A DNA stretch of 63,798 bases, counting the filler, from Nemertoderma westbladi (Eukaryota; Animalia; Xenacoelomorpha), in assembly GCA_032718475.1 (NCBI GenBank). It is 4 parts of 4 records of this genome, joined end to end, with 100 filler letters (N's around TTAATTAATTAA, not from the genome) between each part and the next. Parts side by side here need not be neighbours in the genome. Positions count along the whole stretch, not along the records: positions 38,789 to 58,967 come from JAUCBJ010001306.1; 3 more parts are not named here. One strand, 5' to 3'. A program made the position numbers and the translations under genes. The notes beneath the pieces are model-generated. The model worked only from the letters and a program-made list of their open reading frames with translations. It did not search any database and was not told the DNA's origin. Shown here in pieces: positions 21,496-61,900 of this stretch (position 1 is the first letter of the stretch; each line of letters opens with the position of its first letter).

Positions 21496-22267
21496 ATTAA
21501 CAATAAACTGGCCAATGCAAAAATGAAACTATAGTATTACCAATTTACCAAGTACAATACCTATACAATTTAACCTGTCTTATACCGGTATCTATTATAT
21601 GCCGGCCTAGGGATGATGCGGTAATTCAAAGGGCCCAAGTCAAAGCAATACTCTACAATCGGGACCTTCAGCTCAGGGCTTATTCCTCCGGTACCACTAG
21701 TGGGTGCCATTGGTTTTCTATATTTAAATACATTATTATTATAAATATGATTTAATTCATAAATGTTGTTGAATGTTTTCTACCTATTTCGGATATGACA
21801 GATCAAATGGACACAATTTAGAAACTTATTATTTTAAGAGAACATTATTTTTCGACCATTGAAATATCCGTTGCATAAACAAAAAATAAACAATAAAAAT
21901 GGCTAGTTAGGCCTAGTAGCCTAGTTGTGCCAATAATGATGTTTTATCAGTTTATTGGAGTTAAAGAGTCTCTCAATTGTGGCATTTTTATAACACATTA
22001 CAAAAATAATAAATTTAATTTCGTCACATTTACAAGTAATATAGTTAGACTGTTCGAATTAAATATGTAAATTTAAGAAATCTATACTGTAGGTCCTATT
22101 CGGAAAGGAAATGTTGAGTTTGTGGAGAATTATCCACTAGTAGTAAATTGAGAAATCAAATGCTGTTTATAGGCCTATCTGCCTATTTAAAAGTAAGGGA
22201 TAGTAGTACATCTTCATAACTGACATCGCGGATTTAATGGACTATTATTTGTATCTAATTGACTTAT

Positions 22268-27164: not shown

Positions 27165-27410
27165 TGAATGTGGTTGCATTGAATTCACATCTCCCGTAGG
27201 TCGTGGGTTCGATCCTCACAAGGGCCAGGGCAGTTTTCGTTTCGGCACGAATGCTTTAAAGGGACCAGCCAGGGCGCATCTCTGCCTTGCATCCTTAAGT
27301 GGTAGCTAAATAAGTACTGGAGTTTCCTCTGGGGAGTAAAGTTCTGGGGGGACCGCACTGGAAATAAGTCGTTAGACTTTGTGCGTAATCCCTGGCCTAA
27401 CGGCCGAAGA
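27165..27410 (+). mobile_element. tRNA-derived SINE
   Basis: B-box GGTTCGATCC; core CCTTGCATCCTTAAGTGGTAGCTAAATAAGTAC; closely similar to 57890-58095. Confidence 0.7.
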
Positions 27411-30265: not shown

Positions 30266-30573
30266 AATCGAATCGTTAGTCAGTTCTTATTATAAGTTTT
30301 CGTTCCGATATAGGCTGATAGGTCGGATATTAACGGTAGGCCTAATCAAAAAATAATAACTAAACTACAAACCAAACCATGAGTCCTTAAAAACACATTA
30401 TATTGATCTTTGAAGAATTTAAATTTCCCGCTTTAATGTAGGGTTGTCAACGACAACGAGCAGCTCAGTTTTTTAACGATCCTGGCGCAACTATACCAAA
30501 ATTGTTATAACAGGTCAGCTTTATTTGGTGCTTGGGGTGGTTTAGTAACTCTAGCAGAGCGTCGGTATTTAAT

Positions 30574-34503: not shown

Positions 34504-36304
34504 TCCTGTTGTCATGATAATATGGGACCGATTCCTTAAAAAATTAAAGGTATGGTATTTATCTACTCCTGTGCCAATTATGGGAAGTTTGTCCAGAACG
34601 TCCACATTAACTTGTTAAGCGACCTAGGTAACTTGTTAATGCTAATCCGAAAAATTACGCAGATTGAAAATTAGGGAAGGGCTATGCCATACGCCGTATG
34701 CCTTGCCTAATTTGTATAACCCAAGGCGTTGGTACAGTATAACCTTTTAGAGTAATAAGTGGTACTGTACCGGTACGAGAGTTCTATTGAGACTAGGAGT
34801 AGCTCAATATCCCGCGTCTAAATAACCCCCCCCCCCCCCCCCCCCCCCTAAATTTGGCCCCATACTACCAATACCACATAACTGTAAATAAACAAGGCCA
34901 ACATGTTCAAACAGAAATGTATCAAAGTACAACAATACATCCATCAGCATATCATCTTATTGGCTGATTCAAAACAATTCATTGGCCTAAAAACTGCTGA
35001 TGATACTGCAAGATGATCCACATTCGTTATCTATTCCTAATGTTTGCAAGACTTAATTACATGCTACTGTACGATTGTCTTATCACACGTATAACAACAC
35101 CATGTCATGGAATTGTGTATTTATCTTGGTACATGGACCCCCCCCCCCCCCCCCCCCCCCCCCTCCAAAAAAATGACATTGCATGGAATTTGAAATATAG
35201 ATAGATTTTCCTAACTCCTGCGTGGGAGAGTTAACATATTTATTTTTGCTCTCGTATTTAGTTCATTTTTCTGTTTTATTCATAAAACGTATAGGGATTC
35301 TTTGGTACTGATGGAAAGCGCTATGGCCATGCAAGGATTCCAAATTTGAATTTCGTCGTAATATAGCTGAGATACGGGCTTTCAAAAGTACCATGGTTTT
35401 GCACCTCCGCGAGACTATTTTACTCTATTTAATAAATACATTATATTCTGGAACATATTGATAGTATGATTAAAGAGGTATTGCATATATGCCTAGTATG
35501 GGATAAACAAAATGTTCCAGAATAATATGTTGTATTTATTAAATAGAATAAATAGCCTCGCGCAGTGCAAAACCTATGCAACTTCTGAACGCTTATATCT
35601 CAGCTATTCTATGACGAAATTTAGATTGTGTTACACATTTGGAATCCTTACATGACCAGCGTTTAGGTATAACTGCTGCACAACTGGTGCAATATCGACA
35701 GAGACACCTTTTTTTAAACGATCGTAGATAAAATTGAGTCCAAAAATTTCATTCCATGTACCAGTACCAGAATAACGACATTGTATTCCTGGACATGGCT
35801 ACGGTACTCTACAGCAGCATCACCACCCCTAACTACGGTGGCTGATTGAGGCCATACTTACTAACTGTATTTCTACGGTAATACCTCCGCCTATATTTTT
35901 CGTTTTTCGAATATACTGTAATTTAGAAACGAAATTGCACCATTATTAGCATAGTCAATGCAAACATTTGGTAAGGCCTACTTTGGTAATTACAGTATTA
36001 TAGGCCATTATTGATACTTTATTGTCTTGGTTTAATCTGGTTAGTTCGTTTTTTTCTGCACGTTATCAATACTGGAAATTAACATATTATCAAGGGGTGA
36101 GGGAAGGAGTGCGACTAATAAGGATATTAATTTGCTAACATTATACTACGCTGAATACCCATAGATACTGCCTCGCCAACTCGCTGAATACCAAAGGGGC
36201 GAAATAATTTCGTATTTCTAGAGAAGGAATTCGGGATGTTACTCCGCGACTCTACAGTTGAAATAAATTATTAATTGTTTTCTAAATGACTGTTCCAACT
36301 TTAT

Positions 36305-37699
36305 ATGTTAAAATATAAATTATGTTTATCTCCATTACTATTGTACAGTCTTTGTAAATTGGAAATGGCGCGGGTCGACGTTCAAGGTTTAACAGAAACT
36401 GCCAGTTGCTCGTGTAAGTCGTCGCAGAGAACGCGCGGTATGTATTACCTGTACCTCATCATTGGATCACTCATCAGCTTATTGATGCTACTTCCATCAA
36501 TCCAGACATCTCTAATAAACATTTCTATCCCCGGCTTCAATAAAGTCTGTAAATACATAGGAGATCAATCGAACTGCCCCCTTATCCTCAGTTATACAGC
36601 CATCTATAGAGTCTTCTTCGCCATGACTGTCTTCTTCTCTTTAATGGCGTTTCTAATGGTCGGAGTGAAATCGAATGAAAATATCCGAGGAAAGGTAAAC
36701 AACGGCTTTTGGGTTTTCAAGCTCATTGCTCTTATAGTAATTAGTGTTGTTGCTTTTTATCTCCCAAACTTCGACGTTTTCGTCAACATTTGGTTTTATT
36801 TCGGTCTCATCGGTGGTTTCTTCTTTATCCTTGTGCAGCTCATTATATTACTCAATGTAGGACACGTCTGGAAAAAGTTGCTCTTTATAAATAACGACCC
36901 AGGTGAATTTGGTCTTGAATATTGCTGTTGTGTTGTATGTTTTTATAGCTCCTCCATCATCATAATGTTTTACGTTATCGCAGTGACGCTATTCGTAAGT
37001 ATTTTAATTTATTACGCTAATGAAACCCATTGCCTCAAAAACAAGATAATTGCTGTACTTAACTTACTTCTATGCATGGTTATCAGTGTTATTTCTGTCC
37101 TGCCGCCATTAAGAAATTATAATCCTCGCGTTAGTATCATACACTCCTCCATTGTATCTCTATATGTAATGTACTTCACATGGTCTGCTTTCTCCAGTGA
37201 ACCTCCCACTGAAGATGGTCTCTACTGCGGACCCATCGACGGCATCATTAGGATCAACAACGATGAGATTGTTGTAATGGTTGTTGGGCTCATTATCACC
37301 TTTATCGCCACCAATGTGTTCGCCCGGGGCACCAAGAAGGATCCCGAGGCCTTTGATTGTTCCTGCTCATGCTTCGAGTGCTGCTGGTGTTGTAGAAGTA
37401 CAGATATAGAAGAGGACAGCGAGGATTGTAGCTATAATTACTCCATTTACCATGGAATTCTTATGTTGGCTAGCCTCTATCTCATGATGACCATCACAGG
37501 ATGGTCCTACCTAAGCTCGAAATCTTCGACTAGCGGTCGCTGTTGGGCTGCTTTTTGGGTGAAATTAGTCTCATCTTGGTGTTGCATTGCTATCTACATG
37601 TGGACGATAATTGCTCCAATGATAAGAAAAGAGAAAACTAAAAGTGATATTAACACAAAGAAGAGACACTGTAATCTATGCTATACCTATGTATTATGA
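36305..37699 (+). CDS. SERINC: Serine incorporator (SERINC/TDE/TMS1 family) multi-pass membrane protein, single-exon CDS; start may be ATG 36365
   Basis: YRVFFAM, VNNGFWVFK, GGFFFILVQLIIL, SIVSLYVMYFTWSAFSSEP, YNYSIYH...LASLYLMMTITGW, WVKLVSSWCCIAIYMWTIIAP. Confidence 0.9.
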   Translation: MLKYKLCLSPLLLYSLCKLEMARVDVQGLTETASCSCKSSQRTRGMYYLYLIIGSLISLLMLLPSIQTSLINISIPGFNKVCKYIGDQSNCPLILSYTAIYRVFFAMTVFFSLMAFLMVGVKSNENIRGKVNNGFWVFKLIALIVISVVAFYLPNFDVFVNIWFYFGLIGGFFFILVQLIILLNVGHVWKKLLFINNDPGEFGLEYCCCVVCFYSSSIIIMFYVIAVTLFVSILIYYANETHCLKNKIIAVLNLLLCMVISVISVLPPLRNYNPRVSIIHSSIVSLYVMYFTWSAFSSEPPTEDGLYCGPIDGIIRINNDEIVVMVVGLIITFIATNVFARGTKKDPEAFDCSCSCFECCWCCRSTDIEEDSEDCSYNYSIYHGILMLASLYLMMTITGWSYLSSKSSTSGRCWAAFWVKLVSSWCCIAIYMWTIIAPMIRKEKTKSDINTKKRHCNLCYTYVL

Positions 37700-39545: not shown

Positions 39546-41350
39546 CAAATAGGCCTAATGGAGTGGCTAAGCGAAAGAAATTGTGACAAATAAAGATGTT
39601 CCAAATAATTTAATTAATTGTTTAATGTGATTCTGTTAGATGTAATTGATTTTAACGTATAAACCACAATAGTTTATCATAGCGCGTACCTTTTTTTTTA
39701 TCAAGGGCGGGATTACAAACATATTAGACAATTTATCTTACTAACCTTCCAATGTTAACCAGCCAAATAAAAAATATAACTGATTAAATGATTAACAAAT
39801 TTAACGTTGCTCTGGAAACTAAATTGGTAACTACTGTATGTAAAAGTATATCGTTCAATCATGGTACAATTGCACTCAAGTTTGTTAACAAAATTTGGGA
39901 AAAATCTCACCAATAATAGTTAGTTTTGTTGCTATGTGTAAAATCCATATTGCCAAGGAAATAAATATGAAATTAAAAAAGTTAATATGATCTGATTTTT
40001 TGGAGCATCGGATTTTAGTCTATATACTGATATACCCACTAGGGTTAATCAGTAAATTAAAAATAATGTTTCGATCAATATGTAGGAAATATCAATCAAT
40101 AAGCGATAGCTTTGATATTTTACAAAAAAATAATTTTTTATTTTTTTTTCATTTCATAATTTGGTTGCCCCTTTTATTTATCTTTCTTGTTGTATCGGAT
40201 CTGTTAGTCTTCCTCGAGGCTTGTCTTATATGTAGGCCTAATTGTAGAGCGAGGATTCCATACATACTACAGTATTTCAGTAGTTACAGCATGACTGAAA
40301 ATATTTTTGGTCATATTTGACCGAAATGGTACTGCGCGGGTTAAACTAAGTACTAGGATGAAAAAAGCTGGAATCCTCAAAAATACAACTATTATCGTTA
40401 TTATTGTAATCCCATAGCCACTAGCAATTTAGTTTTCAGATTGGATAATTAGTTTTTTTTATATTTGATACTATAATCCGGCAGATATTGCATTATACCT
40501 TGCATGGAAGTATATAGTAAATGTTTGAACTGATTCGGGTTGGTAAAATTGTTGTCATCAATGATCTGACTAATGCCCAACTGGCAGCGCCCCCTTGAGG
40601 GTTTTCCTAAAATTGCCAAATTCTAAACCTGATCATGACTTTGCGAAAGCTACGATTTTCAATCCCCAGGGGTTTGTTCCAGAACGTTTTTACTCACTAT
40701 TATTATTCCAATGGGAACAGCCCCGGTTTCAAGTTATAAAGTGTGCTATTTCGTAACGATAATGAAGTTTTGTACAGTAATTCAATGATATACCTTTGCA
40801 TTATAACATAAATCTTAAATTTCTGGTTGTATCTGGTGGCGAACAAGACTTAACAATAACAATCTTTGAAGAATCTGGTGGCGAACAAGACTTATAATCT
40901 ATGAACCTGAACGCGTAATATCTCAGCTGTTTCTCAACGAAATTCAGATAGTGTTACATATTTCGAAACCTTGTAACGCCAGCTTTCTAATGATATGCTA
41001 AATTATTCACTAATGTGAAGAATGGCCACGATACGGAGGGTGCGATTTCGCAAAAGACACTTTTTTAAAACGCTTATAAAAAAATTTTAAAGGCAACATC
41101 GAAAATTCCGGCTTCATGGGGTCAACCACGGTGAGTTGAACTTGTGTTTCAAATTTCAAACAATATGATAAAGATTTGTAGAAAAATCTGGAGGGGGTTG
41201 GGGGGTCCGTATCATCAGAAAATGACACTATATTACGAGTCATGGTGTATACTCCCATGCAAGGTTCAGCACGGCATATATCTGCCGGACTACTAAGACT
41301 ACCAGAAGAATAGCATTATTACTGAGTTATTGAAGATATCTATTTCAATA

Positions 41351-44300
41351 ATGGGAACTGTTTTCAACATAGCTGATAGCCTAGTCGTCTTGGTTAAGCA
41401 TATTGAAAATGCAACAACCCCTCCTAATGTTCAAGAAGCGATGGATGAATTAATTTCAACTGTTGAATCAATTTCGGCGTATGATGAAACAAGCTTTGAA
41501 GGCTGGAAAATTATTCATAAATTAGACGAAATTGGCATTTCCTTATGGAATGCTGTTGTGAACAAAAAGTCCCTAACTCCGCAACACATAACGAACATGC
41601 AAGTAGCAAAATTGAGACATCTTGCAGTAGATTTATGCCAAAGGCAGAAAAATGACACACCACTGAATTTAAAAAGAATGTTGGTGATGCGGATGAAGAC
41701 GGTTACGTCTTGGCTTGATGCTGAGACACCATCAATGTGTCGCCTTTTATTTCCAGATATTGCGAACACTGTTGAGAATCTTAGGAAGTCAGCACAGCTG
41801 CCGAATACTGATAGACAAGCTCAGCATAACTCACAGCAGCAATTTCACAGAGATTTATCAAAGTTGAGATGTTTACAAGCGGAGGTAGCAGTTGCGGAAA
41901 ACGATTACAATACCGCTGTTATCTTGATAGAAAAGGCAAAATCAGTTGTTGGAGATCTCCTTCCACATGATGCATCAAGCCTGGCACAGTTGTGCTACCA
42001 GCTAGCTTTGACTTGCTTTAAGAGCGGTGCTTTCCAGCAGTGCATTACATTACTCAATGACAGCTATGATGCGGGAAAAGGCCATTTGGCTAAAGAGTTT
42101 CAAGCCCGTAGTTTAAGGTTAATAACATATGCATATCTTCAATGGGACTCTATTGCTTACAATTCAGTCGCTCTCAGTAAGATTCAGGATTCGATCGCAG
42201 AGGATCCTCACCCTGCTGGTCTCCTATTGCTGCTCAGAATCCGTTTAGAGGGAACTAGTGTTGCTGGAGAAATAGTACAAGAAGCCCTGGATTCTTGTTT
42301 ATGTCATACTACATTTAGCGTCGATGATGCATTATCTGTAATTAACCAACTTGCGCAACATAACAGAACTGATTTGCTAGAAAGCTGCCTGGAAATTTGT
42401 AATGGAAAGTTCCCTAATGAAATAAAGTTTATTCTAATGAGAGTGAAATTGCTCATAGAAGCAGATAAGGTTGTCACTGCATATCAGATCCTTACAAGCA
42501 CAATAGAAAACATTGTCAATGGAAATTCCATAATCGATAATATTACCAAGAACCAGTTGCATTCTATTATATGGGACACTGCAGGTAAACACTTTACAGA
42601 GAGTTTATATGACGAAGCATCATCTTGGTATGATCTATCATATACCCTTTATGAAGTTTCCAAATGTGCCACCGATCTCAGTGATTATGAAAAACTTATT
42701 CGCAACAAAGTTGTGTGTCTCATAGCTTTGGGTCAATTTAACAAAGCGGTTGATTGTCTTTCTAAAAGTGAATCCACGGATTCCCACACAAAATATCTTG
42801 CGTTTAAAGTAGCTGTTCTCCAAGGAGATGACACTAAGGCAGTTGTTTACTTGGAAGATCTAAGCAAAATGGATGATAGTGATAGTTTAGTATCTCTTGC
42901 ATGTCAGCTAGCCATAGAGAATTCCAGTAAATCTGTATCAACAACAGCGCTGTCCTATTTGAGCAAGAACTCAAAAAACATCAATCTTATTCTAACATCT
43001 CTTCGTTGCCTCATACATTACCAATTGCAAACTGAATTACCAGAGCCAACAAAGATATTAGAATATCTAGAAGCTGCAGCTCCTGTAATTAATGAATGTA
43101 CCGACCCCGCTGAAATAGCTTGGTTTGTACGAATGTCCTGGAATATTGGCATTGACTTTTCATCGAACATACCAATTATGAAGGAAATTTTCAAAATATG
43201 CTCGATTTTCTGCAAGGCCCAGGGGGTTGATGGAACAGCAAGGAGTAACAGCTGTTTGCTGATGGTTGCTGCAGCATGTCTAGAATTATCTCGCAAAGAA
43301 AGTGACGATTCCAAGAAGTTATTGTACGCGGAAACGCTGTCAGTTCTTAGCACCTTAAGCGATGCGGATGTTAGCCGCATGGATTCGGCTTCATCTAGGA
43401 TGTTTGTCCTCTATAGATGGGAATGTTACTTGGGACTGAATGATGCAAACTCTTGCAAAGAGTTATTATCCACACACAGTTTAGACATTAAATCGCTACA
43501 GATTATGGCGAATGGCGCTAAGGATTGTGATTGGTCTAGAGAATTAGCATTAGATTGTCTCAATAAAGTGTTGTCAATAATCGACTTTGGCAGTGATGAT
43601 GTAGATCTGATCAGCGCCACTGTCCACGAACTAGTTATTTTATCTTTGGATGAGATGATAACTGGTCGAGTTCAAGAAAGTGCTTTAGAGAACTTCCAGA
43701 AGGCAATAGTAGCCATAGATAATTGCCAAGCTAATTATCCCCAAGTTGAAATCCTCTGGTTGGCTACGGCCGCCTGGAACACTGGTACCCGTCTCCATCT
43801 AAATGGCCAATCAGGAGATGAATGGTGTCGCCTGGCCTTGGCAACTATCAATAGAATGGAGGATTGCGATGTGAAATCGGGTTATTCCAGTAAGATGATA
43901 GAAATCCCAGCGAAAAACACAATCCCGATCCCGAAAAACCGGGATCCCAGCGAAAAATACAACCCCGATCCCGAAAAACCGGGATCCCAGCAAAAAATAC
44001 AATCCCGATCACGATCCAAAAAAACCGGAATCCCAGCGAAAAACACAATCCCGATCCCGAAAAACCGGGATCCCAGCGAAAAATACAACCCCGATCCCGA
44101 AAAACCGGGATCCCAGCAAAAAATACAATCCCGATCACGATCCAAAAAAACCGGAATCCCAGCGAAAAACACAATCCCGATCCCGAAAAACCGGGATCCC
44201 AGCAAAAAATACAATCCCGATCACGATCCAAAAAAACCGGAATCCCAGCGAAAAACACAATCCCGATCCCGAAAAACCGGGATCCCAGCGAAAAATACAA

Positions 44301-44488
44301 CCCCGATCCCGAAAAACCGGGATCCCAGCAAAAAATACAATCCCGATCACGATCCAAAAAAACCGGAATCCCAGCGAAAAACACAATCCCGATCCCGATC
44401 CCGAAAAACCGGGATCTCCAGCGAAAAATGCAACCCGGTCCGATCCCGACTTTTTTGGACCGGGATCCCAAAGTATATATATAGTTAA
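41351..44488 (+). CDS. TEX11: TEX11/SPO22/ZIP4-like meiotic TPR protein, single-exon CDS; last ~195 codons are repeat-derived
   Basis: All-helical protein of about 850 aa with GISLWNAVV, QARSLRLI..AYL.WD, LHSIIWD, A.SWYDLS, AWFVRMSWNIG and YPQVEILWLATAAWNTG...EWCRLAL, characteristic of this family. First ATG at 41351. Confidence 0.78.
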   Translation: MGTVFNIADSLVVLVKHIENATTPPNVQEAMDELISTVESISAYDETSFEGWKIIHKLDEIGISLWNAVVNKKSLTPQHITNMQVAKLRHLAVDLCQRQKNDTPLNLKRMLVMRMKTVTSWLDAETPSMCRLLFPDIANTVENLRKSAQLPNTDRQAQHNSQQQFHRDLSKLRCLQAEVAVAENDYNTAVILIEKAKSVVGDLLPHDASSLAQLCYQLALTCFKSGAFQQCITLLNDSYDAGKGHLAKEFQARSLRLITYAYLQWDSIAYNSVALSKIQDSIAEDPHPAGLLLLLRIRLEGTSVAGEIVQEALDSCLCHTTFSVDDALSVINQLAQHNRTDLLESCLEICNGKFPNEIKFILMRVKLLIEADKVVTAYQILTSTIENIVNGNSIIDNITKNQLHSIIWDTAGKHFTESLYDEASSWYDLSYTLYEVSKCATDLSDYEKLIRNKVVCLIALGQFNKAVDCLSKSESTDSHTKYLAFKVAVLQGDDTKAVVYLEDLSKMDDSDSLVSLACQLAIENSSKSVSTTALSYLSKNSKNINLILTSLRCLIHYQLQTELPEPTKILEYLEAAAPVINECTDPAEIAWFVRMSWNIGIDFSSNIPIMKEIFKICSIFCKAQGVDGTARSNSCLLMVAAACLELSRKESDDSKKLLYAETLSVLSTLSDADVSRMDSASSRMFVLYRWECYLGLNDANSCKELLSTHSLDIKSLQIMANGAKDCDWSRELALDCLNKVLSIIDFGSDDVDLISATVHELVILSLDEMITGRVQESALENFQKAIVAIDNCQANYPQVEILWLATAAWNTGTRLHLNGQSGDEWCRLALATINRMEDCDVKSGYSSKMIEIPAKNTIPIPKNRDPSEKYNPDPEKPGSQQKIQSRSRSKKTGIPAKNTIPIPKNRDPSEKYNPDPEKPGSQQKIQSRSRSKKTGIPAKNTIPIPKNRDPSKKYNPDHDPKKPESQRKTQSRSRKTGIPAKNTTPIPKNRDPSKKYNPDHDPKKPESQRKTQSRSRSRKTGISSEKCNPVRSRLFWTGIPKYIYS

Positions 44489-44755: not shown

Positions 44756-44822
44756 TTAAACACAATACACAGTCAAAAATAAATTAAGCAACGTAGCAAC
44801 GCAAAAGTAGCTCAGTACACTC

Positions 44823-44866
44823 ACCCGGCTGATGATAACCAGAAGTTTGAAACCTAGGTACCGGGT
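44823..44866 (+). ncRNA. Type-I hammerhead ribozyme, copy 1
   Basis: ACCCGG-CTGATGA-TAAC(CAGAA)GTTT-GAA-ACCTAGGT-A-CCGGGT; predicted cleavage after GUA at 44860. Confidence 0.8.
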
Positions 44867-45192
44867 TCGAGCCCCAATAGGGCCGGTTGATATTTTTCGC
44901 TATGGAGAGCATTATCATATTGTCCTATTTACATTATATATTTAATTCACCGCGTCACTCACCCCACAACAATTCACTTGTTATTATTAATTAACAGCCT
45001 GGGCCAGGCATACGGGGTTACTAGTGGTTTCTACACCACTGTATAATAGTTATTCTTTGAGGCATGGTTGCCATTTCTGGCAGAGCACGGGAATAACGAA
45101 GCTTGTACTTTCCTTTGAGTGATTAGTTGGCCTAAATATGATCTCCCACTCCATAGCGAAATATTCATCCGGTCTGGTAGCTCAGTACACTC

Positions 45193-45236
45193 ACCCGGCT
45201 GATGATAACCAGAAGTTTGAAACCTAGGTACCGGGT
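45193..45236 (+). ncRNA. Type-I hammerhead ribozyme, copy 2
   Basis: Identical motif; predicted cleavage after 45230. Confidence 0.8.
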
Positions 45237-45560
45237 TCGAGCCCCAATAGGGCCGGTTGATATTTTTCGCTATGGAGAGCATTATCATATTGTCTTATTT
45301 ACATTGTATATTTAATTCACCGCGTCACTCACCCCACAACAATTCACTTATTATTATTAATTAACAGCCTGGGCCAGGCATACGGGGTTACAGTGGTTTC
45401 TACAACACTGTATAATAGTTATTCTTTGAGGCATGGTTGCCATTTCTGGCAGAGCACGGGAATAACGAACTTGTACTTTCCTTTGAGTGATTAGTTGGCC
45501 TAAATATGATCTCCCACTCCATAGCGAAATATTCATCCGGTCTGGTAGCTCAGTACACTC

Positions 45561-45604
45561 ACCCGGCTGATGATAACCAGAAGTTTGAAACCTAGGTACC
45601 GGGT
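45561..45604 (+). ncRNA. Type-I hammerhead ribozyme, copy 3
   Basis: Identical motif; predicted cleavage after 45598. Confidence 0.8.
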
Positions 45605-45928
45605 TCGAGCCCCAATAGGGCCGGTTGATATTTTTCGCTATGGAGAGCATTATCATATTGTCTTATTTACATTGTATATTTAATTCACCGCGTCACTCAC
45701 CCCACAACAATTCACTTATTATTATTAATTAACAGCCTGGGCCAGGCATACGGGGTTACAGTGGTTTCTACAACACTGTATAATAGTTATTCTTTGAGGC
45801 ATGGTTGCCATTTCTGGCAGAGCACGGGAATAACGAACTTGTACTTTCCTTTGAGTGATTAGTTGGCCTAAATATGATCTCCCACTCCATAGCGAAATAT
45901 TCATCCGGTCTGGTAGCTCAGTACACTC

Positions 45929-45972
45929 ACCCGGCTGATGATAACCAGAAGTTTGAAACCTAGGTACCGGGT
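45929..45972 (+). ncRNA. Type-I hammerhead ribozyme, copy 4
   Basis: Identical motif; predicted cleavage after 45966. Confidence 0.8.
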
Positions 45973-46084
45973 TCGAGCCCCAATAGGGCCGGTTGATATT
46001 TTTCGCTATGGAGAGCATTATCATATTGTCTTATTTACATTGTATATTAAATTAAGCAACGCTTATGTAGTGATTACAACAAAT

Positions 46085-46210
46085 AGGCTGGAAATCCTAA
46101 GAGCTTATGGAATACCAGAAGTAATTGTCGCTGGCATTGGATTGTTATATTGTGAGACAGAAGCTCAGGTAGACAAGTACTCTCACCAAATGGTGAAACT
46201 GATCTATTCA
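46085..46210 (+). pseudogene. Old non-LTR RT fragment (RTE-like)
   Basis: LEILRAYGIPEVIVAGIGLLY resembles MFSILSLYGIPDEIIAAIRSVY of the RTE at 60439. Confidence 0.55.
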
Positions 46211-46607: not shown

Positions 46608-47140
46608 CTACTACTAGGATCGGCATGCTGCATTGCAGCTGCATTTTTAAGAATGCTGTGCCGGCTTGTCAACAAAATTGCACCGCCACAACTCCCTATC
46701 ACCCATGACATTTGCTAGATCATCCGCATCTTCAAGGCCAGTGTCCTTTAAGATGCGTCTCAAGAAAGTCATGGGCTGTCCACCATGCTTATTCACTCCA
46801 TGAGGCTGCCAAAGTACAAGATTATGCACTGGCTGGTCCTCACGGCGAAAGCAATGTCCTGCAAAGCGGAGGCGATTTTATTCTAGTGTCAAGCTTGGGG
46901 GAACCAATGAGACACCTCCAATGTTATATAGTGTCTGGTTGGAGATGTGTGCATTGTACTTGACACAATGAATTCGGCGTAGCATTCTTGTGAATGTGCC
47001 ATCCAGAGATTTGGTGTCCTCAGCAGTTAGAGCCCAGCATGGACTCCCGTAGAGGAGTACTGGAACTACTGCTGCTCTAAATAATCGGACCTTAAGTTTC
47101 CGATTAATTCTCGGTGACTTCCAAATCCTGGAAAGCCTAT
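46608..47140 (-). mobile_element. 5'-truncated RTE LINE copy
   Basis: Near-identical reverse complement of about 61145-61680, with (TAG)n tail. Confidence 0.9.
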
Positions 47141-47457
47141 CCCTAAACGTAGCATAATAACGTAATAGTAATTCGCTCGTATAACAACATTATTAAATTA
47201 AAATAAAGAATGGTGTGAGTTGCTAATTGCGAGAAAAGGTCAGCCAACGCTAATATGTCGTCCTTAGATAAACTAATTATAGAACTTAATAGAACAACGT
47301 ACCGGTATTATATTGTATATTTTGTAACTTTATCTCACACCTGTAACTCGTTTCAATATTTTAATTTCCTCCCGTTTGTAAATATTCGCCTTAGGAACAG
47401 ACGTCAGATAAAGTCCTACTTTATACACATTATAATATATTGATCTATATTACTTAC

Positions 47458-49300: not shown

Positions 49301-49553
49301 GTGATGTTACTTACTTACCGGTACCGGTTAGTTAGGCCTATCTACTGAGATAAATATTAGTTTCAGTTTCATTGTAAAGTAATCTAACAATATTATATCA
49401 ACACTTTTTCGAGATAAGAAAGTGGACACAAATAAGAAGGAAACATAGTTTGTTGTTTTGGGTAAAAACGACAGTGAAAAAATAAACCAAATTACTAATA
49501 CACAATAATAAAATATAGAAATAGTACTTAATAATTTTAAATAAATATTTCAG

Positions 49554-52500
49554 GTCAAAATAAAAATCTTTGAAGCTCGACACCTTCCGAGCGGCGACAC
49601 GGATCCGGTAGTGCGAATGAAGGTCGGGTCGACGATAAAGAAATCCTCTATACGATGGGACACGAGCAAACCGATATGGAACGAGTCGTATTTCTTCAAC
49701 CTGCGAGGACCGCCGCGGGAACTGTTCCAGGAGACCATCGAGATCGAGTTGTACAACGCGCGCAAACTCCGAGCGGACGCGTTCATCGGGGCCTATCAGT
49801 TGGACCTCGGGACGGTGTACGAGTCGGCGAGACACGCGGTCCTCCGCCGGTGGTTGCTGCTGAGCGACCCAGGGGACCCGATGGGAGGCCGACAGAGCTA
49901 CATAAAGGTGAGCTGCGTGGTCCTAGCGCCGGGGGATAGATCGCCAACGGACGCGGAAGCGAAAGGTTACGAAGACGACATAGAAGAAAACCTGTTGAGT
50001 TTACCTGGAACTCAACTGCAGCCCGCGACCTTCTGGTTGCGAGTTTATAAAGGGGAAGATCTTCCACAGATGGAGTCGCAACCGTTGAATGTAATGAAAA
50101 AGGCAGTGGGAGTTTATCCGAGGGAATCCTCGGATTTAATCGACGGGTTTGTGAGTTTCCAGTTCGCAGGGAAAGAGGTGACTACGAGACGGATAAAAGG
50201 GACTTACAATCCGGTGTGGAACTCGGAACTGCGACTCGGGGTCCGCTTCCCATCGATGTGCGATCGCATTACCGTAAGGGTGTTCGATCACAACGCTGTA
50301 ACCAGGAACTCAGCAATAGCGACTGGACACATCTACATGTCCGAGATATCAGTGAAGGGAACACGGCATGGATTCGCGCCCACATACGGACCAGCTTTTC
50401 TCCCTTTGTACGGAAATATTCGGGATTTTTCTATATTTACCTACAAGTTGGATTCCTTGAATGAGGGAACAGGGACTGGTTGCTGTTACCGGGGCAGATT
50501 GTTTCTAGAATTCGGGTGTATCCTGGGAAAATTGCCCGCAAAAGACGCCCAAGTACAATATCTAGGGGGAACAAACCCGGATTTAGGTGCAGTTGAGATG
50601 TTCATGAAAAAGAAACAATTTTGCGCGTACATCACGCTCCTAGAAGCGTCCATGTTCCAAAAACATGACGACATAGTAGAATTTGAAGCCTCTATAGGTA
50701 ACCACGGTAACCGAGATGAACCTAGATACACACTGCAATCATCACTTAGCAACCCGATGCAACCAGTGTACGACGGCACCAAATATTATTACATTCCTTG
50801 GGGGGCAGATAAACCGACGCTTAGGATATATTGTGATATGGAGGACATCACATTTCGTCTGCAGGCCCTCAATCTTATTATATACATCGTAGACGCCTTC
50901 GATAAGCGAATGTCGTCAATAAAAGATGCGATAAGAAATGGCGAACCTGACGAATTAATCTCGTCGGAATTAACGAAACTATCGGAAGAACTCAACATCG
51001 ACTGCACACTCGCACTTCCTGAGTTGAATGCAAAATTACACTCAGTTACTCAACTCGACCTCCAGCTAAGCAAACACAGGATCTATGCAAAGAACGAAAC
51101 CGGTAGGCGAGCCTCCAAGTTGTGCGACACTCCCAAGGATATTCTCACAATGATCTCCGAGTTGGAGGCGATGGCAAATGAGTTGCGCCATCTGGCGTCC
51201 GAGCCGCAGAACAGTGTGCCAGACCTGATTATTTGGATGATATACGGCGGGGTTCGTACGGCTTACTACCGCGTCCCCGTTTACGACATCCTGTTTACTA
51301 ACGGCTCCTACGATGGAATCCATTGTGGAAAGAGTCAAACAGTCTTCCTAAATAATAGATGCTTGCCGGGGAAGTCGACCGACGACATTCCTTGCATGTT
51401 GCGATTTACAGGATGGTTTGGTCCTCAGCAGCTCGAAGCTGAGTGGATTAAGGGTATGGAAGGATTTACGATCGCCATGTATGCCGAGGTGTTTGAGTAT
51501 CGAACGCCATTAGGGCGTAAATTATATGATGCATCGGGGATGGTTAGGTGCGAAAAACCATTGTTTAAGCTCCCCATCGGTTGGGAGTGGAACGATGATG
51601 ATTGGGTGCCGGGCCCAGCGCCCAGTAGCAACACCCTCCATCAAAGAGCGGAATACGAAGTCTGTGAGGCGTACGAGTATCAGGAACGGCCCGCTAAATC
51701 TCAGAGATGGACAGATAAATGGGACACCGAGAACACCGTTTGGATCGACAAGGATAATGCTATAGAGGGGCCAAAGGATGATAAGGTGTGCCCTCCTGGT
51801 CGGGTATGGATGGGGGATTGGGAATCCGAGATAGCGGATGGTGTGGACTCAGAGGGGTGGGAATATTGTATAGACCCAAGTATAGGAGGGTGGACTGGCA
51901 CAGTTCAATCTTACCATATTAGTCGCCGAAAACGCTGGGTTAGAAAACACATGCAAGACACACCCTTACCTGAGCCTGAAGTAGAGCATACAGAAGGCTG
52001 GGAATATGCAAAACCATGGGGTAATCGCTACAAACACGATGCACAATCCATGCTAGATTTCATATCCCGTCGCCACTGGAAACGAAAAATATCTAAAAAT
52101 GAAACTAAAGGTGTTAAGGGTGTTAATCTATTTATATTTGACATGTCTGGAGTTTTTGATCCCGAACAAAGTAATAGGGTGAATAGGTCGAATAGGAAGC
52201 AGGTGGCTCCCAACATTTATGTCGAGTACAATACAGCTAATTCGTATCAACTCAGAAGTTATATCTACATGGCAAGATCACTTCTAGCAGCGGATTCAGA
52301 TAGCTTCTCCGATCCCTATGTGCAGATCATGTTCATGAACAGATCAGTACGCAGTCAAATAATTCGAAAAACCGTCTGTCCAATATGGGACCAGTGCTTG
52401 ATTATATCAGACATTGTTTTACATGACAGTATAACAAATCTTATTAGGAATCCACCATCGCTCGTCCTAGAGATATATGACCACGATGATTATGGCAAAG

Positions 52501-54977
52501 ATGACTTCCTAGGGAGAGCCTGTATTATACCAATAATTCGCATAAAGGCAGATGGATATGCAGCACCTGTTCTAGAATGGTTCACACTGAACAAGATAAC
52601 TGGTAACTGCCGTGGCGATGTTTTGGCCTGTTTCGAGTTGTTTCTGATGACGGGGGATCTCCCATTTTTGCCTCCTGAAAAAGGGATTGATATAAGTGGG
52701 AGTGATGGAATTGCAAAATCTCTCTATTCCATACCTAGAGGTATTAAACCTATAACTACCAGCATGTGTTTGATGATCTTGTGCTGGGGTTTAAGGAACC
52801 TATCTTCTTACCAAGGACTGTCTGTAACCCAACCAACAGTAGAATTTGTTTGTGCTGGGAAGATTGTGAAATCAGAAATGCTCAACAATGTAGCAAGAAA
52901 TCCTAACTTTCACAACCCTGTCTTAACAATGGAAGTAGACTTACCTGTACGCCATGTATATCTACCACCGATTCACATTAAAGTTAGAGATAACAGATCC
53001 TTTGGAAGGAAACCTATAGTGGGTGTCTACACAATAAATTCTTTAGCTGAATACAAGGAAAATGTAAACAAAACACAAAAGAAGACAATTGAAGATGAAC
53101 CTTTCAAAAAACTGTCTGATCCAAAACCTGTAAAGTCTAAGCAAGCCGATGTGAATGAAGATTTCGATTGGTGGAGTAAATACTACGCATCGATAGGAGA
53201 TGCCTCAAAGGCATCTTTGTATGTTGAAAAGGGTTATGAACTTCTGAAAGTATATGATAAGGAACTTGAATTAAGTGAAAATTACGAACGTTTTCAAGAC
53301 TTTGTAAAAACCTTTGATTTGGTGAGAGGCAGAACTGATGATAAAGTTGAAACAGTTGGCCAACTGAAGGCCTCCTTTGCATTGTACAATAACATCAATG
53401 AGATAAAGCCTAGACACCATTGGCCAGGGGGAGCTAATGTCACCATACGAATCTACATACTGAGAGGTTTGGATCTGACCCCGATGGATGGTAGTGGCAC
53501 GTCGGATCCTTACATAAAGATTAGCCTCGGTACTAAAGTCATCGATGATGTCAACAACTACATCCCCAACAGCATCAACCCGATATTCGGAAAAAGCTAC
53601 GAAATTCAGCAACAAATGCCATTGTTTAAAGATTTAAAAATAACCGTGATGGACCACGATTTCGTGAGTGGCGACGATGTCATTGGTGAGACAGTGATCG
53701 ACATTGAGGACAGATATATCTCAAAATTCCGGGCTACTTGCGGAATAAATGCCCAGTATTACTTGGCCGGTGTCAACTGCTGGAGGGATTCACAGAAACC
53801 CAGCGACATTCTAGAATGGTACTGTCGTCATAACGACTTAGATAAACCAATGTTCGAAGGTAATAGACAGGTTCGCGTGGGTGGAAAGGTTTACTTGTTG
53901 GATAAACTCGAGTCCGGACCACCACACCCCGACTGGGGTCCCTCCCAGGAGCGTCTGGCTCTTCACGTACTACGTCAACTCCCATTGGTTCGCGAGCACG
54001 TGGAGCAAAGGACTCTGTACAACAGCGAGCTTCAACCGGGGATCTCGCAAGGGAAACTCGAGATGTGGGTGGACATATTCTCTATGAGTAGTGGTAGACC
54101 ACCACCCCCGGTCAACGTGAAAGCGCGAGAGGCGAAGCACTACGAGTTGCGAGTGGTGATATGGGACGCGAAAGACGTTGTATTGGAAGAGGAGGGGACA
54201 TTGACGGGACAGAAAATGAGTGACATTTATGTGAAAGGTTGGTTGGACGGTAGTGACGACATACAAGCAACAGATGTTCATTATCGTTCGTTGTCTGGCG
54301 AGGGAAACTTTAACTGGCGGTTTGTCTTTGATTTGCACTACATTGATCAGGAGCATATAATGGTAATTAAATCGAAGAGGCATTTTTGGAGTTGGGATGG
54401 GATAGAAGAGAAATTACCCCCGAGGTTTTTCGTGCAAATTTGGGACAACGACTTGATATCGCAGGATGACTATATCGGGCAAATTATATTCAATCTAGAT
54501 AAAATGTACGAACCAACGAAATCGTCTGGGAGCTGCTCATTGTCCGTGTTTAAGGACAAGAAGGGGAAGAGACGTGACAGTCTGATAAAGAGAAGAAGGA
54601 TGAGAGGTTGGTGGCCGACAACGGAAGAAAAGGGAAAGAAGTTGACTGGGAAGTTAGACATGGAGTTTGAGATTATTAGCAAAGAGGATGCAAAGCACAA
54701 GCCAGTAGGTCGGGGGAGATCTGATCCGAACATGTACCCGCATCTTGAGGTGCCGAATAGGCCAGGTAGCTCGTTCCTATGGTATAAGGCGCCATGGCGG
54801 GCACTCAAATACATAATTTGGCAGAATTATAAGTGGAAATTTCTAATAGCTTTAATATTCTTTATAGTACTGCACTTTTTCTATAGTTACCTATATTCAC
54901 TTCCAGTCTACGCTGCCAAGGCAACTGTCGAGGAATTAATTAGTGGGTCAAAAAGTAAACCAGAAAATGGAGTTTAA
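49554..54977 (+). CDS. Type-I (DysF-containing, dysferlin/myoferlin-like) ferlin, 5.4-kb exon
   Basis: TTTCAG acceptor; multiple C2 domains (SDPYVQI, SDPYIKI, SDIYVKGW, TDVHYRSLSGEGNFNWRF), FerI (DDIEENLL), DysF (GWEW, GWEY, RRKRW, RRHW), FDWWSKYYAS, C-terminal TM helix. Confidence 0.93.
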   Translation, partial: VKIKIFEARHLPSGDTDPVVRMKVGSTIKKSSIRWDTSKPIWNESYFFNLRGPPRELFQETIEIELYNARKLRADAFIGAYQLDLGTVYESARHAVLRRWLLLSDPGDPMGGRQSYIKVSCVVLAPGDRSPTDAEAKGYEDDIEENLLSLPGTQLQPATFWLRVYKGEDLPQMESQPLNVMKKAVGVYPRESSDLIDGFVSFQFAGKEVTTRRIKGTYNPVWNSELRLGVRFPSMCDRITVRVFDHNAVTRNSAIATGHIYMSEISVKGTRHGFAPTYGPAFLPLYGNIRDFSIFTYKLDSLNEGTGTGCCYRGRLFLEFGCILGKLPAKDAQVQYLGGTNPDLGAVEMFMKKKQFCAYITLLEASMFQKHDDIVEFEASIGNHGNRDEPRYTLQSSLSNPMQPVYDGTKYYYIPWGADKPTLRIYCDMEDITFRLQALNLIIYIVDAFDKRMSSIKDAIRNGEPDELISSELTKLSEELNIDCTLALPELNAKLHSVTQLDLQLSKHRIYAKNETGRRASKLCDTPKDILTMISELEAMANELRHLASEPQNSVPDLIIWMIYGGVRTAYYRVPVYDILFTNGSYDGIHCGKSQTVFLNNRCLPGKSTDDIPCMLRFTGWFGPQQLEAEWIKGMEGFTIAMYAEVFEYRTPLGRKLYDASGMVRCEKPLFKLPIGWEWNDDDWVPGPAPSSNTLHQRAEYEVCEAYEYQERPAKSQRWTDKWDTENTVWIDKDNAIEGPKDDKVCPPGRVWMGDWESEIADGVDSEGWEYCIDPSIGGWTGTVQSYHISRRKRWVRKHMQDTPLPEPEVEHTEGWEYAKPWGNRYKHDAQSMLDFISRRHWKRKISKNETKGVKGVNLFIFDMSGVFDPEQSNRVNRSNRKQVAPNIYVEYNTANSYQLRSYIYMARSLLAADSDSFSDPYVQIMFMNRSVRSQIIRKTVCPIWDQCLIISDIVLHDSITNLIRNPPSLVLEIYDHDDYGKDDFLGRACIIPIIRIKADGYAAPVLEWFTLNKITGNCRGDVLACFELFLMTGDLPFLPPEKGIDISGSDGIAKSLYSIPRGIKPITTSMCLMILCWGLRNLSSYQGLSVTQPTVEFVCAGKIVKSEMLNNVARNPNFHNPVLTMEVDLPVRHVYLPPIHIKVRDNRSFGRKPIVGVYTINSLAEYKENVNKTQKKTIEDEPFKKLSDPKPVKSKQADVNEDFDWWSKYYASIGDASKASLYVEKGYELLKVYDKELELSENYERFQDFVKTFDLVRGRTDDKVETVGQLKASFALYNNINEIKPRHHWPGGANVTIRIYILRGLDLTPMDGSGTSDPYIKISLGTKVIDDVNNYIPNSINPIFGKSYEIQQQMPLFKDLKITVMDHDFVSGDDVIGETVIDIEDRYISKFRATCGINAQYYLAGVNCWRDSQKPSDILEWYCRHNDLDKPMFEGNRQVRVGGKVYLLDKLESGPPHPDWGPSQERLALHVLRQLPLVREHVEQRTLYNSELQPGISQGKLEMWVDIFSMSSGRPPPPVNVKAREAKHYELRVVIWDAKDVVLEEEGTLTGQKMSDIYVKGWLDGSDDIQATDVHYRSLSGEGNFNWRFVFDLHYIDQEHIMVIKSKRHFWSWDGIEEKLPPRFFVQIWDNDLISQDDYIGQIIFNLDKMYEPTKSSGSCSLSVFKDKKGKRRDSLIKRRRMRGWWPTTEEKGKKLTGKLDMEFEIISKEDAKHKPVGRGRSDPNMYPHLEVPNRPGSSFLWYKAPWRALKYIIWQNYKWKFLIALIFFIVLHFFYSYLYSLPVYAAKATVEELISGSKSKPENGV

Positions 54978-56131: not shown

Positions 56132-56405
56132 CTACTACTACTACTACTAGGATCGGCATGCTGCATTGCAGCTGCATTTTTAAGAATGCTGTGCCGGCTT
56201 GTCAACAAAATTGCACCGCCACAACTCCCTATCACCCATGACATTTGCTAGATCATCCGCATCTTTAAGGCCAGTGTCCTTTAAGATGCGTCTCAAGAAA
56301 GTCATGGGCTGTCCACCATGCTTATTCACTCCATGAGGCTGCCAAAGTACAAGATTATGCACTGGCTGGTCCTCACGGCGAAAGCAATGTCCTGCAAAGC
56401 GGAGG
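56132..56405 (-). mobile_element. Short 5'-truncated RTE copy with 11-bp TSD
   Basis: Matches the 3' end of the 60410 RTE; (TAG)n tail; ATTCCAGACAA at 56121-56131 and 56406-56416. Confidence 0.92.
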
Positions 56406-56451
56406 ATTCCAGACAAAGGCACCGTTATACCATTACATGCCCCGGAATCAA

Positions 56452-56686
56452 GCAAGCAAACAGTCGGCCGAAGCCGGAGGCGACCCGAAGGCTTCGTAGC
56501 TCTTTCGATAGCTGTTACCCGAGGGTAGGGGTGGGCGCTACTCCTATTCCTAGTTTGCTCACAGTAATTTAACTGGTACTCATTTTATCAACCCCAGGAT
56601 GAAATGCTGAGTGGATCGTGGCAGGGCTCGAACCCACAATCAATACATTGTAGGACCGGCGCTCAAGTAACTGAGCTACCCCGCCT
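56452..56686 (-). mobile_element. Apparently complete tRNA-derived SINE
   Basis: Minus strand GGCGGGGTAGCTCAGT...GGTTCGAGCCC, core CAGCATTTCATCC...GATAAAATGAGTACCAG, GC-rich 3' hairpin and (GCTT)n tail. Confidence 0.75.
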
Positions 56687-56939
56687 TTAGGCCCCGAAAT
56701 ATAGTGTCGCAAATCAGAGATCCCCCCCCCCCCCCACCAAAAAAAATCTACAAATCTGAAGAAGTTTGCATGGAATTTGAAAGAGAGAGAGTTTCATCCC
56801 CCCCCCCCCCCCCCTCCTTAGTGGGTGAGCCAGAATTTTTATTTTTGCGTTCGTTCTTTAGCTACAAGCCTTTGCGGCCTCTCATGTGTCAGGAACCTCG
56901 GCAGACTCCCGCGCCACTCAATGTTAAATTATATTGTTC

Positions 56940-57286
56940 GCCCGGCGCTCGCGAGCTGTGGCGTATCCGCTGCGGCCAGCCACCTCGCCCAGACGGCTGC
57001 AAAGGACGCGGAAGCTCTAAAGATCCACAAGTACCAGGAACTCATGGACCGGGGCTACCTCTTCCACCCGGTAACCTACGAGACCATGGGCCACCCCGGT
57101 CCCGAAACATCCGAGTTCCTGAAGGAGATCGCGGCAAGACTCCACTCTGTTACCCAGGAACCCCGATCTCACAGCTTCCTCCTGCAGAGACTGGCTGTTG
57201 CCATCCTGGTCGGCAATGCGGCCTCCATTATTGGGACCGTGAACCCCTCACTCACTAACAAAGAGGGACTCTATGAGGTGGTCTAG
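56940..57286 (+). mobile_element. 5'-truncated CRE-clade non-LTR retrotransposon (RLE C-terminus)
   Basis: AEALKIHKY...FHPVTYETMGHPGPET...FLLQRLAVAILVGNAASII; protein-level relative of 13197-13425. Confidence 0.7.
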
Positions 57287-57889: not shown

Positions 57890-58095
57890 AGTCCGGTTTA
57901 GTGGTTGTATTGGATTCGCCTCTCTTCGAAGGTCGTGGGTTCGATCCCCCACGAGGCCAATGAAGTTTTCGTTTCGGCGCGAATGCTTTGAAGGGACTAG
58001 CCAGGGCGTAACCCTCCATGCCTTGCATCCTTAAATGGTAGCTAAATGAGTACTGTCGGAGTTTCCTCTGGGGAGTAAAGTTCCGGGGGGACCAA
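57890..58095 (+). mobile_element. tRNA-derived SINE
   Basis: A-box-like CGGTTTAGTGG, B-box GGTTCGATCCC, core CCTTGCATCCTTAAATGGTAGCTAAATGAGTAC. Confidence 0.75.
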
Positions 58096-58967: not shown

Positions 58968-60409
58968 NNNNNNNNNNNNNNNNNNNNNNNNNNNNNNNNN
59001 NNNNNNNNNNNTTAATTAATTAANNNNNNNNNNNNNNNNNNNNNNNNNNNNNNNNNNNNNNNNNNNNTACGCTTTATACTTTAATCATAAGCAGTATCGT
59101 TGCGTTTTAGTATAAGTCTTAGTTCTGTTTAAATAGATAAAGCGCCACGTCCTAAAGGAACTGTTAATATTTCCCGAAAGCCAATAATATCTGTCAGAGA
59201 TTAATTATTAACGATCTATCGAATAATATAGTAGGTATACACTGCAACCTTACACTGTAATAATACAATTCAAGCATCCGAATTCAGTCTCCCGGGTGTA
59301 GATCCATCGGGTGAATGATCGCGCATGGGCTGACTTCGGCTAATGTTTTGCGTATTAGCATAAAATATTGTCGTATGCTAAAGTGGTTTTAATTAACTAG
59401 AAGACATATAAATTTTGGCAGGTTAAACTGCTAAAGGTCTTCAAAAGCGCGAACACTTACCATTGGCATAACCATATTGGAATCAGAAGACATTATTTAA
59501 TTTATTTTATTGTAAATCAAACAAACAAAGTAAAAACTTTTAAACTAAAACCATTAAAATGATTAATTGCGATTAAAGCAAGAGATTATATATAAGATAT
59601 TTTCAAAAATAATACAGGTCTTAAACTGGGAAATAGCCTAAATTCGGTTTATTGATTGGTTGATTAGCCGGTGGGTAACTACTGTACAGTACAGTACAAT
59701 TAAATAAAAAATTACGGTCAAGGTTGAGTAACTATGGAAATGTTCGTATACGTGTAGCTGGAAACGTGGCGGAATTTCAACACGTATCCTACTGCAGGAC
59801 TGGTAGGCTGCTTGGTTGGTTGGATTGGTGACAGCCGTGATGGAGTTGGCAATCAATATAATATCTGCTGTAGTTGGTGGCCACGTTGTCAGCATATACA
59901 GTATACAGTGGTTGGTTGCGTGAATAGGAAATAACTATGGAAATGTTCGTATACGTGTAGCCGGAAACGTGGTGGATTGGTAGGTTGCTTGGTTGAATGG
60001 ATTGGTGACAGCCGTGGTGAGTTGGCGATCGATTCGATATAATAGGGTAGTGTGGGGCTAGCCACGCGATGAGAGGTTTGGGTACGCGAAGATGAATATG
60101 CTATGGTTGGTTGATGCAACGACGCGAACCAATACTGACGGGAGGTAACAGCTGTAGGAGTAAGGAGGGCATCGCGAGGTTAGGCTACGCGTAGGTGATA
60201 CGCAGCGATTGGCTGAAGGCAACGACGCGAATCAATATTGATGGTGACAGATGGTCATTAAACACCACGATTTAGCACCGGAATTTGGCATTTTTAATAG
60301 CCCTCTGAGATGTGGCCCGTAGCCCAGGCTAGGGAGGAGTTAGCCGAGAACTATGCTTCTCCTACTACTGGTATACAGGGATCCCATTGAGAGACTGCTC
60401 CGTGGAAAT

Positions 60410-61680: not shown

Positions 61681-61900
61681 TCTCTTTGAAAGGCGTTTCT
61701 TAATTTGTTTGAGATAAAGCCACCCAGCGGGAGCAGAAAATATTACATCTCCGATAATAGCTAAATTATTTATTCCTCCCGGTGGCATAAATAGAATATC
61801 TTCTTGGTGTTAATTATTTATTTTGCAGGACAAATACGTAGTTAACGCACTCTTATAATTGCAACATACTATTTGTGCATAGATTACATTACCTTGACAT

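Follow-up and report, generated by a model that had tools for sequence, protein, structure and literature searches.

A predicted tandem hammerhead ribozyme array, probably of the non-LTR retrozyme type, with the ribozyme set in a tRNA-like head, in the genome of Nemertoderma westbladi

Animal non-LTR retrozymes, in the available text of Cervera and de la Pena 2020 (PMC7229834) and of the preprint by Li, Clavereau and Pollet 2026 (10.64898/2026.07.22.740005), have non-coding units of 150-450 bp with one type I hammerhead each, GC below 50%, a TSD of more than 4 bp, a self-paired monomer and a weak palindromic helix III. The array reported here resembles them in each of these features. Elements of such size and GC, with long TSDs, circles and a multimer-cDNA model, are described in PMC7229834 and PMC7761336, which give demonstrated circles for coral, mussel and axolotl retrozymes. 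The preprint derives non-LTR retrozymes from the pLTRs of Penelope-like elements (PLEs). Expression, cleavage and circles have been demonstrated for the class and are putative for the array. Retrozyme circles are mostly predicted with the ribozyme free, whereas that of the array is predicted to be blocked. Unlike the array, non-LTR retrozymes are given no tRNA-like promoter in the available text.

The SINE-like Schistosoma repeats Sm-alpha and Sj-alpha (PMC6765202, PMC2770079) share with the array a tRNA-related Pol III promoter and a hammerhead in tandem units, and in both cases cleavage would part the monomer from a usable promoter, so that tandems are needed. In the layout given by the review text, the Sm-alpha promoter is followed by the hammerhead, whereas that of the array is placed between the A and B boxes, overlapping the tRNA arms. 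Sm-alpha heads are still called as tRNA-Gln by tRNAscan, whereas the head of the array is uncalled by ARAGORN at its default.

PLEs and their pLTR hammerheads resemble the array in having a type I, likely dimer-acting ribozyme, partial tandems and AT-rich targets (PMC4209133, PMC11167929, PMC8557442). A fixed internal RT start and inverted pieces in relatives are further likenesses to the family of the array (PMC11167929, PMC8557442). Unlike PLEs, the array has no ORF and no autonomous partner was found for it among the ORFs scanned, and its canonical 6-bp stem I and 4-position stem II differ from the minimal PLE motif (PMC4209133). Finally, Helenus (PMC10886601) has, like the array, a tRNA-derived A/B-box promoter inside a non-SINE non-autonomous retroelement repeat. 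It differs in its LTRs, PBS, PPT and short TSDs, and the available text describes no ribozyme in it.

The locus lies in a window of 63,798 nucleotides, the whole stretch of DNA that was analysed (Table 1). We regard it as very probably a tandem hammerhead element of the non-LTR retrozyme type; by every tested feature it is a member of the known class. The units measure 368-370 bp with a GC of 42%, the hammerhead is of type I with a full core in all four copies, the TSD exceeds 4 bp and there is no LTR layout. The element is non-coding and multicopy, with a monomer predicted to be self-paired. This agrees with the preliminary description, which had proposed a type I hammerhead tandem of the retrozyme kind with a TSD; many genomic copies were found. 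In terms of likeness to Sm-alpha, tRNA-derived A and B boxes, as matched by consensus patterns, are present in each unit. Their arrangement differs from Sm-alpha, the promoter not being wholly upstream of the hammerhead.

Table 1. Positions of the array, its target site and its internal motifs along the window
Feature	Position	Strand	Remarks
Left TSD copy	44780..44793	+	14 bp, AT-rich
5' junction insert	44794..44806	+	13 nt; 44795-44802 repeats target
Unit 1	44807..45176	+	variant A, 370 bp; starts at tRNA-like head position 7
Unit 2	45177..45544	+	variant B, 368 bp
Unit 3	45545..45912	+	variant B, 368 bp, same sequence as unit 2
Unit 4, partial	45913..46047	+	variant B, 135 bp; end is 81 nt past predicted cut
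Type I hammerhead 1	44823..44866	+	core starts at 44829; predicted cut after 44860
Type I hammerhead 2	45193..45236	+	core starts at 45199; predicted cut after 45230
Type I hammerhead 3	45561..45604	+	core starts at 45567; predicted cut after 45598
Type I hammerhead 4	45929..45972	+	core starts at 45935; predicted cut after 45966
tRNA-like head	45171..45256	+	acceptor-like stem, A box, B box, hammerhead inside; also 45539-45624, 45907-45992; 5'-clipped at 44807
Pol III A-box-like core	45178..45185	+	without closing GG; also 44808, 45546, 45914
Pol III B-box-like motif	45234..45244	+	4 nt past cut, overlaps stem I 3' strand; also 44864, 45602, 45970
Five-T run	45263..45267	+	sole run of at least 4 T in unit; potential Pol III stop, +93
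Imperfect inverted repeat	45253-45291 / 45503-45540 (stretch 45253..45540)	+	79%; closes predicted monomer rod
Right TSD copy	46048..46061	+	14 bp; first 6 letters match unit's continuation at 5/6

The units are joined head-to-tail without an internal region. Tandem Repeats Finder reports 44807-46053 with a period of 368, 3.4 copies and 99% matches, and the core positions give the 370/368/368 spacing of the four motifs; both this spacing and the non-integer copy number of about 3.4 were correctly described before. A pattern of the core plus its downstream part matched four times, against 0 matches in each of 100 shuffles. Each hammerhead has a stem I of 6 Watson-Crick pairs and a stem II of three pairs above a U-U, and the helix III palindrome is predicted to pair with another copy of itself over 8 bp (-11.4 kcal/mol). 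An Infernal-type check, as had been suggested, does recover all four copies with Rfam HH9, at 19.7 bits against a gathering score of 52. Its E value depends on the search space (0.23 on 4 kb, 0.011 on 181 bases), and HH9 is absent from the whole-window matches at E<=5, which are 8 in number and all under the gathering threshold. As for coding capacity, the unit holds a single 101-aa stop-to-stop frame, on the minus strand and with no Pfam family, and a protein-coding role was rejected. A plant-type LTR retrozyme was rejected too, given the type I ribozyme and the lack of an LTR layout.

The U-U at the base of stem II, raised as a caveat before, is present and is less serious than feared. Axolotl HHR_Amex2 has the same U-U and cleaves, 22% as a monomer and more as a dimer (PMC7229834), and a U-U at stem II is tolerated (PMC3088659). 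In one contig of the present family, which holds 49% of the depth of its run (X4, below), position 10.1 is changed from U to A, giving an A-U pair. Ribozyme activity cannot be assumed, because only 1 of 9 predicted Xenopus retrozyme dimers cleaved in vitro and 8 did not (preprint 10.64898/2026.07.22.740005).

In folding predictions, linear monomers are more stable than shuffles (z -3.5 and -2.8), and the circle reaches -96.8 kcal/mol (z -3.1), with 1 of 100 shuffles as low. The predicted minimum fold has the catalytic core paired to the A-box strand, and stem I there has a probability near 0; when only 71 nt are folded locally it is about 0.6. The active fold is predicted to lie 6.8 kcal/mol above the blocked minimum in the circle. 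In a dimer, one forced ribozyme would cost 15.0 kcal/mol and a double hammerhead 11.6. From these models, cutting is likely to be slow and favoured in the dimer.

The preliminary description missed the tRNA-like Pol III promoter around the ribozyme. An A and B box pair 56 nt apart, on either strand, was held by 31 of 20000 shuffled units, and the predicted cut lies between the two boxes in each unit. The acceptor-like stem pairs 45171-45177 with 45249-45255 at 6 of 7 positions. The stem I 5' strand occupies the anticodon-stem position of the head, the hammerhead core that of the anticodon loop, and the stem I 3' strand coincides with the T stem's 5' strand. Just before the cut stand five letters that resemble a class I variable loop, with GUH there in 9 of 16 compared tRNA-Ile genes; at the variable-loop position, AGGTC is found in two further SINE heads of the window. 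The 5' end of the insertion falls 6 nt inside the first base of the head, for which we estimate a chance of about 2-4%. The T5 run at +93 is found in every unit and would halt Pol III far short of one unit.

Variation among family copies touches this head in several ways. Copies with a longer D-loop stretch and a full A box including GG were found in 13 and 9 contigs, at a low consensus agreement (0.53 and 0.62). Unphased changes at 45908 (G>A, 15% and 19% of depth) and 45989 (C>T, 14% and 15%) would jointly preserve an acceptor pair, and 45909 T>C strengthens the next one. On the other side, 45989 C>G (26% and 27%) breaks the acceptor pair and the common 45890 T>C (54% and 35%) breaks a predicted pair, with no partner change listed for either. 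Another common change, 45947 A>G (41%, 50% and 21%), makes the old tRNA-arm partner of the stem I 5' strand fully complementary.

A functional tRNA gene was rejected; ARAGORN at its default threshold finds no scorable cloverleaf and 0 tRNA genes. Relaxed ARAGORN gives a tRNA-Ile(gat) with a score of 81, at a threshold where 288 of 1000 shuffles are also called, which is not significant. Ile(GAU) is the best match among 41 tRNAs (60.5 vs 52.0). The isotype is not established by this, because the pattern used to choose 16 of the 18 Ile genes works in their favour, and a eukaryotic origin is known for none. Phe is a rival isotype, its anticodon loop itself fitting the hammerhead core, as loops among the compared tRNA genes show and as holds in eukaryotes. 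We also observed four tRNA genes (L001:669-757, L111:269-357, L055:667-755 and L109:290-378) in which body and anticodon are oddly matched, since they have a long variable arm together with an anticodon called as Ile(gat) or Phe(gaa).

The position-by-position overlap raises the possibility, which we hold to be doubtful, that a tRNA scaffold gave rise to the hammerhead de novo, with no more than two short insertions needed. On this route, taken as a whole with the same doubt, the 5' strand of the anticodon stem would have become stem I and the anticodon loop the CUGAUGA core. The variable loop would have provided the cleavage triplet, with the T-stem 5' strand closing stem I. Blastn of the tRNA-like head against phages gave no match. 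A scan for the core plus B box returned at least 120 metagenome loci and 9 viral loci; among the 129 listed, 0 have a 6-bp stem I, 2 have 5 bp and lack stems II and III, and none resembles the unit. In the literature searched, with few subscription papers in scope, no tRNA-derived repeat was found to carry a natural hammerhead between its A and B boxes.

As for the junctions, the 14-bp TSD claimed before is an exact match. Among 6010 control pairs of 30-nt windows placed 1241 apart, 0 share 12 letters or more. The short 5' junction described as scrambled does hold an insert, which reads as target-templated and not scrambled, as 8 of its 13 letters repeat the target: 44795-44802 equals 46055-46062, made up of the last letters of the right TSD and one target base beyond it. 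From its letters, the insert may be a product of target-templated repair. Target-primed insertion is well supported, because of the TSD, the AT-rich target and the 5-of-6 match between the TSD start and the template; a match of this kind occurs at 5 places in 368. An empty-site joint is not among the 15 of 73 joints listed, and runs X1 and X4 have no cover at 46058-46086, neither of which informs on insertion polymorphism.

Six runs from four studies contain part of the stretch. X1, X3 and X4 are runs of three DNA studies, and one run guessed to be RNA, with 4 partial pieces, was left out. Aligned to one duplicate-free unit were 1817 contigs in X1, 999 in X3 and 115 in X4, ranging from below 90 to above 99% alike; their depth is not a copy number. 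In X1, 2 contigs show head-to-tail joints of 368, and wraps of variants are present in X1, X3 and X4. The other genomic copies that had been expected do exist. Among 19 variable positions listed at 6%, 3 fall within the 44-nt hammerhead (N7, 10.1 and loop 2, all tolerant) and none in the invariant core, stem I or stem III. This conservation seems to lend modest support to the ribozyme, and only modest because the alignment favours conserved parts.

These contigs also bear on a rival reading, which we consider very improbable, that assembly of a high-copy repeat created the array or its copy number as an artefact. None of the listed contigs spans the array, and X runs near 38740 and 58460, read as N gaps, stand at other tandem arrays. 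Against an artefact speak the exact TSD at both edges, the distinct unit 1, the joints going back 368 in the 2 X1 contigs, the wraps of variants in X3 and X4, and one X3 contig, with a depth of 26.7, that covers the right TSD and its flank; the number of B units is provisional.

Family 3' ends cluster at one AT-rich site, at or just before the 3' end of the present copy. Among the 18 of 383 rows listed, long and mutually unlike AT-rich loose ends follow 46048 in 8 X1 and 10 X3 contigs, 46046 in 3 X4 contigs, and 46029 in 24 and 25 contigs. They come from a pool of 358, 328 and 42 partly aligned contigs, with ends just past 46047 pooled at 46048. As regards the 3' end, the earlier expectation that other arrays would show different start phases therefore seems mistaken. 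All three runs contain opposite-strand joints, and one such joint (45874/46012) coincides with the unit's own inverted repeat. Looking at the same phase in an earlier unit (45680-45735), the 50 nt past the array's end are AC-rich and finish in a second AT run, and 3 X4 contigs break off behind 45727 and 45734. Like the Penelope 'tail', this run may act as a further site of priming.

The units had been called near-identical, which holds at 99%, with a structure inside this figure: units 2, 3 and 4 are identical over 871 bp, and unit 1 differs from them at six places (44925, 44936, 44980, 45022, 45036 and 45101; 4 substitutions and 2 one-base insertions). The probability that even ageing puts all six differences in unit 1 is 7e-4. 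Compared by eye, an X4 contig with a depth of 413 carries both unit-1 letters together at unit positions 119 and 130, an X3 contig has the unit-1 letter at 130, and 3 X1 contigs and 1 X3 contig have the variant-B letter there. In all, 2 of the 6 differences are present in other family copies, 45838 C>G is an ambiguous case, and the other 3 are absent from the list at 6%. Judged by these letters, unit 1 is probably another family variant. The switch from A to B lies within 45102-45294, and a single template would then cover at most 753-946 nt. The earlier proposal, in which a single RT event went round one circle more than three times, is not supported in that form, as a single template explains 2.0-2.6 turns only. 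The mixed units likely originate from more than one RNA variant and not from one circle.

Our preferred reading, held at a probability of roughly 0.45, is TPRT of an uncut, mixed multi-unit RNA that ended at the tRNA-like start. A source array of the form A-B-B-B would have been transcribed from its tRNA-like head, reading through the T run. Pairing of the A-box strand with the catalytic core is predicted to slow the cut, so that multimers would persist. A cleaved monomer is predicted to have the B box at its 5' end and the A box at its 3' end; with the boxes at opposite ends, only a circle or a tandem copy would rebuild the promoter, in parallel to Sm-alpha. A helper RT/endonuclease, most likely of Penelope type, would nick AT-rich DNA, and copying would start at a fixed AU-rich site, 81 nt past the cut, and run to within 6 nt of the tRNA-like start. 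Repair would then add the target-templated 13-nt insert and the TSD.

Several observations were counted in favour of the uncut multimer: the six differences of unit 1 against the identical units 2-4, the 5' end near the start of the head, the clustered AT-rich loose ends, as in Penelope-type internal priming, and the opposite-strand joints in all three runs, as in inverted PLE copies. Such inverted copies are described in the available text of PMC8557442. The Penelope-like RT of the anole begins copying at fixed positions within its RNA, nicks AT-rich DNA and primes without homology, and its main substrate is RNA that has not been processed (PMC11167929). The 5-of-6 match of TSD and template fits LINE-like homology priming and was counted against a Penelope-type helper. 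Within the window, no GIY-YIG family was found among 8 ORFs scanned, and no Penelope-like element among 13 ORFs scanned against Pfam. The unit and the window's RT element share no sequence, tail included. The A box without its closing GG and the T5 at +93 count against Pol III as the source of multimers, and with this T run read-through or Pol II must be assumed.

The identical B units also count against the multimer, as they are exactly the product expected from a circle. Rolling-circle copying of a 368-nt variant-B circle over 2.0-2.6 turns, followed by a jump to a variant-A RNA or by later gene conversion of unit 1, is a close rival and a serious, if tentative, possibility, keeping the core idea of the preliminary description in reduced form. 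There the circle was offered as an own inference; it is an already published hypothesis for the class (PMC7229834, PMC7761336), and circles are demonstrated for coral, mussel and axolotl retrozymes. The identity of units 2-4 over 871 bp, a switch interval that includes the cut at 45230, and a stable predicted fold (z -3.1) whose blocked ribozyme would protect the circle all agree with this route. It needs a second event for unit 1, a circle alone leaves the 5' end at the tRNA-like start unexplained, and in the present family the circle is predicted only.

An unlikely further route is that a shorter A-B insert was retroposed and its B unit then duplicated in DNA, by slippage or unequal crossing-over. 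The perfect identity of the B units and the other tandem arrays in the window fit it, and the 2026 preprint (10.64898/2026.07.22.740005) proposes local tandem amplification for retrozyme arrays. It still requires a mixed A-B template, and no evidence here requires it.

Regarding possible transcription of the array, an intronless ORF of the ZIP4/SPO22 family (TEX11-like) lies at 41297-44488 (+), open into a tandem repeat at 43903-44449 that adds about 195 repetitive residues. On the same strand, the array begins 319 nt past the stop of this ORF, and the left TSD is overlapped by an AATAAA at 44778. Given this position and strand, read-through from the meiotic ZIP4/SPO22-family gene could transcribe the array.

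Other mobile elements were found in the window. A SINE-like composite at 56141-56690 (-) joins a tRNA-like head to the 3' piece of the window's RT element, with a short triplet repeat at its end. This head (56678-56624, -) has A and B boxes that are letter for letter those of the hammerhead unit, and the stretch past its B box may resemble the MetaSINE central domain. Its RT-derived piece is 97-99.6% alike to 46608-46872 and 61413-61681. A non-LTR RT ORF (RVT_1) lies at 60391-61681 (+), and a young 5'-truncated copy of the RT element, 97% alike, at 46608-47189 (-), which is 560 bp to the right of the array. Another repeat has a tRNA-like head and a B box; its three copies (4109-4235, 27170-27354 and 57895-58093, +) are 76-85% alike. 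A Gypsy-like LTR retrotransposon at 5213-9249 (-) has open gag-like and pol frames (RT, RNase H, integrase). A 154-residue frame at 56822-57286 (+) has no Pfam match, and we take its end to resemble the restriction-like endonuclease tail of some non-LTR elements.

In terms of host genes, an importin-like protein (18292-21528), an aminopeptidase (27653-30286), a Serinc (36290-37699) and a ferlin of 1810 residues (49545-54977) are each a single open frame. The aminopeptidase is 41-50% identical to those of many animals, with no close relative among its best 120 matches. The host is a divergent, unusually intron-poor animal.

The retrozyme class, its long TSDs and the circle hypothesis are already in print, which makes the array a good example and not a discovery; a ribozyme inside tRNA-like promoter boxes is its one design feature unreported in the literature searched. 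With intact junctions, two unit variants and clustered ends, the template of a retrozyme (circle or uncut multimer) and its helper can be tested in one genome. The position-by-position overlap of ribozyme and tRNA-like head suggests a promoter for an animal retrozyme, an explanation for monomers being unable to spread and, possibly, a short evolutionary route by which a tRNA could turn into a hammerhead. If the doubtful de novo origin were true, a SINE would have become a ribozyme that cuts its own promoter and spreads only as circles or tandems, and retrozymes would have an origin independent of Penelope pLTRs.
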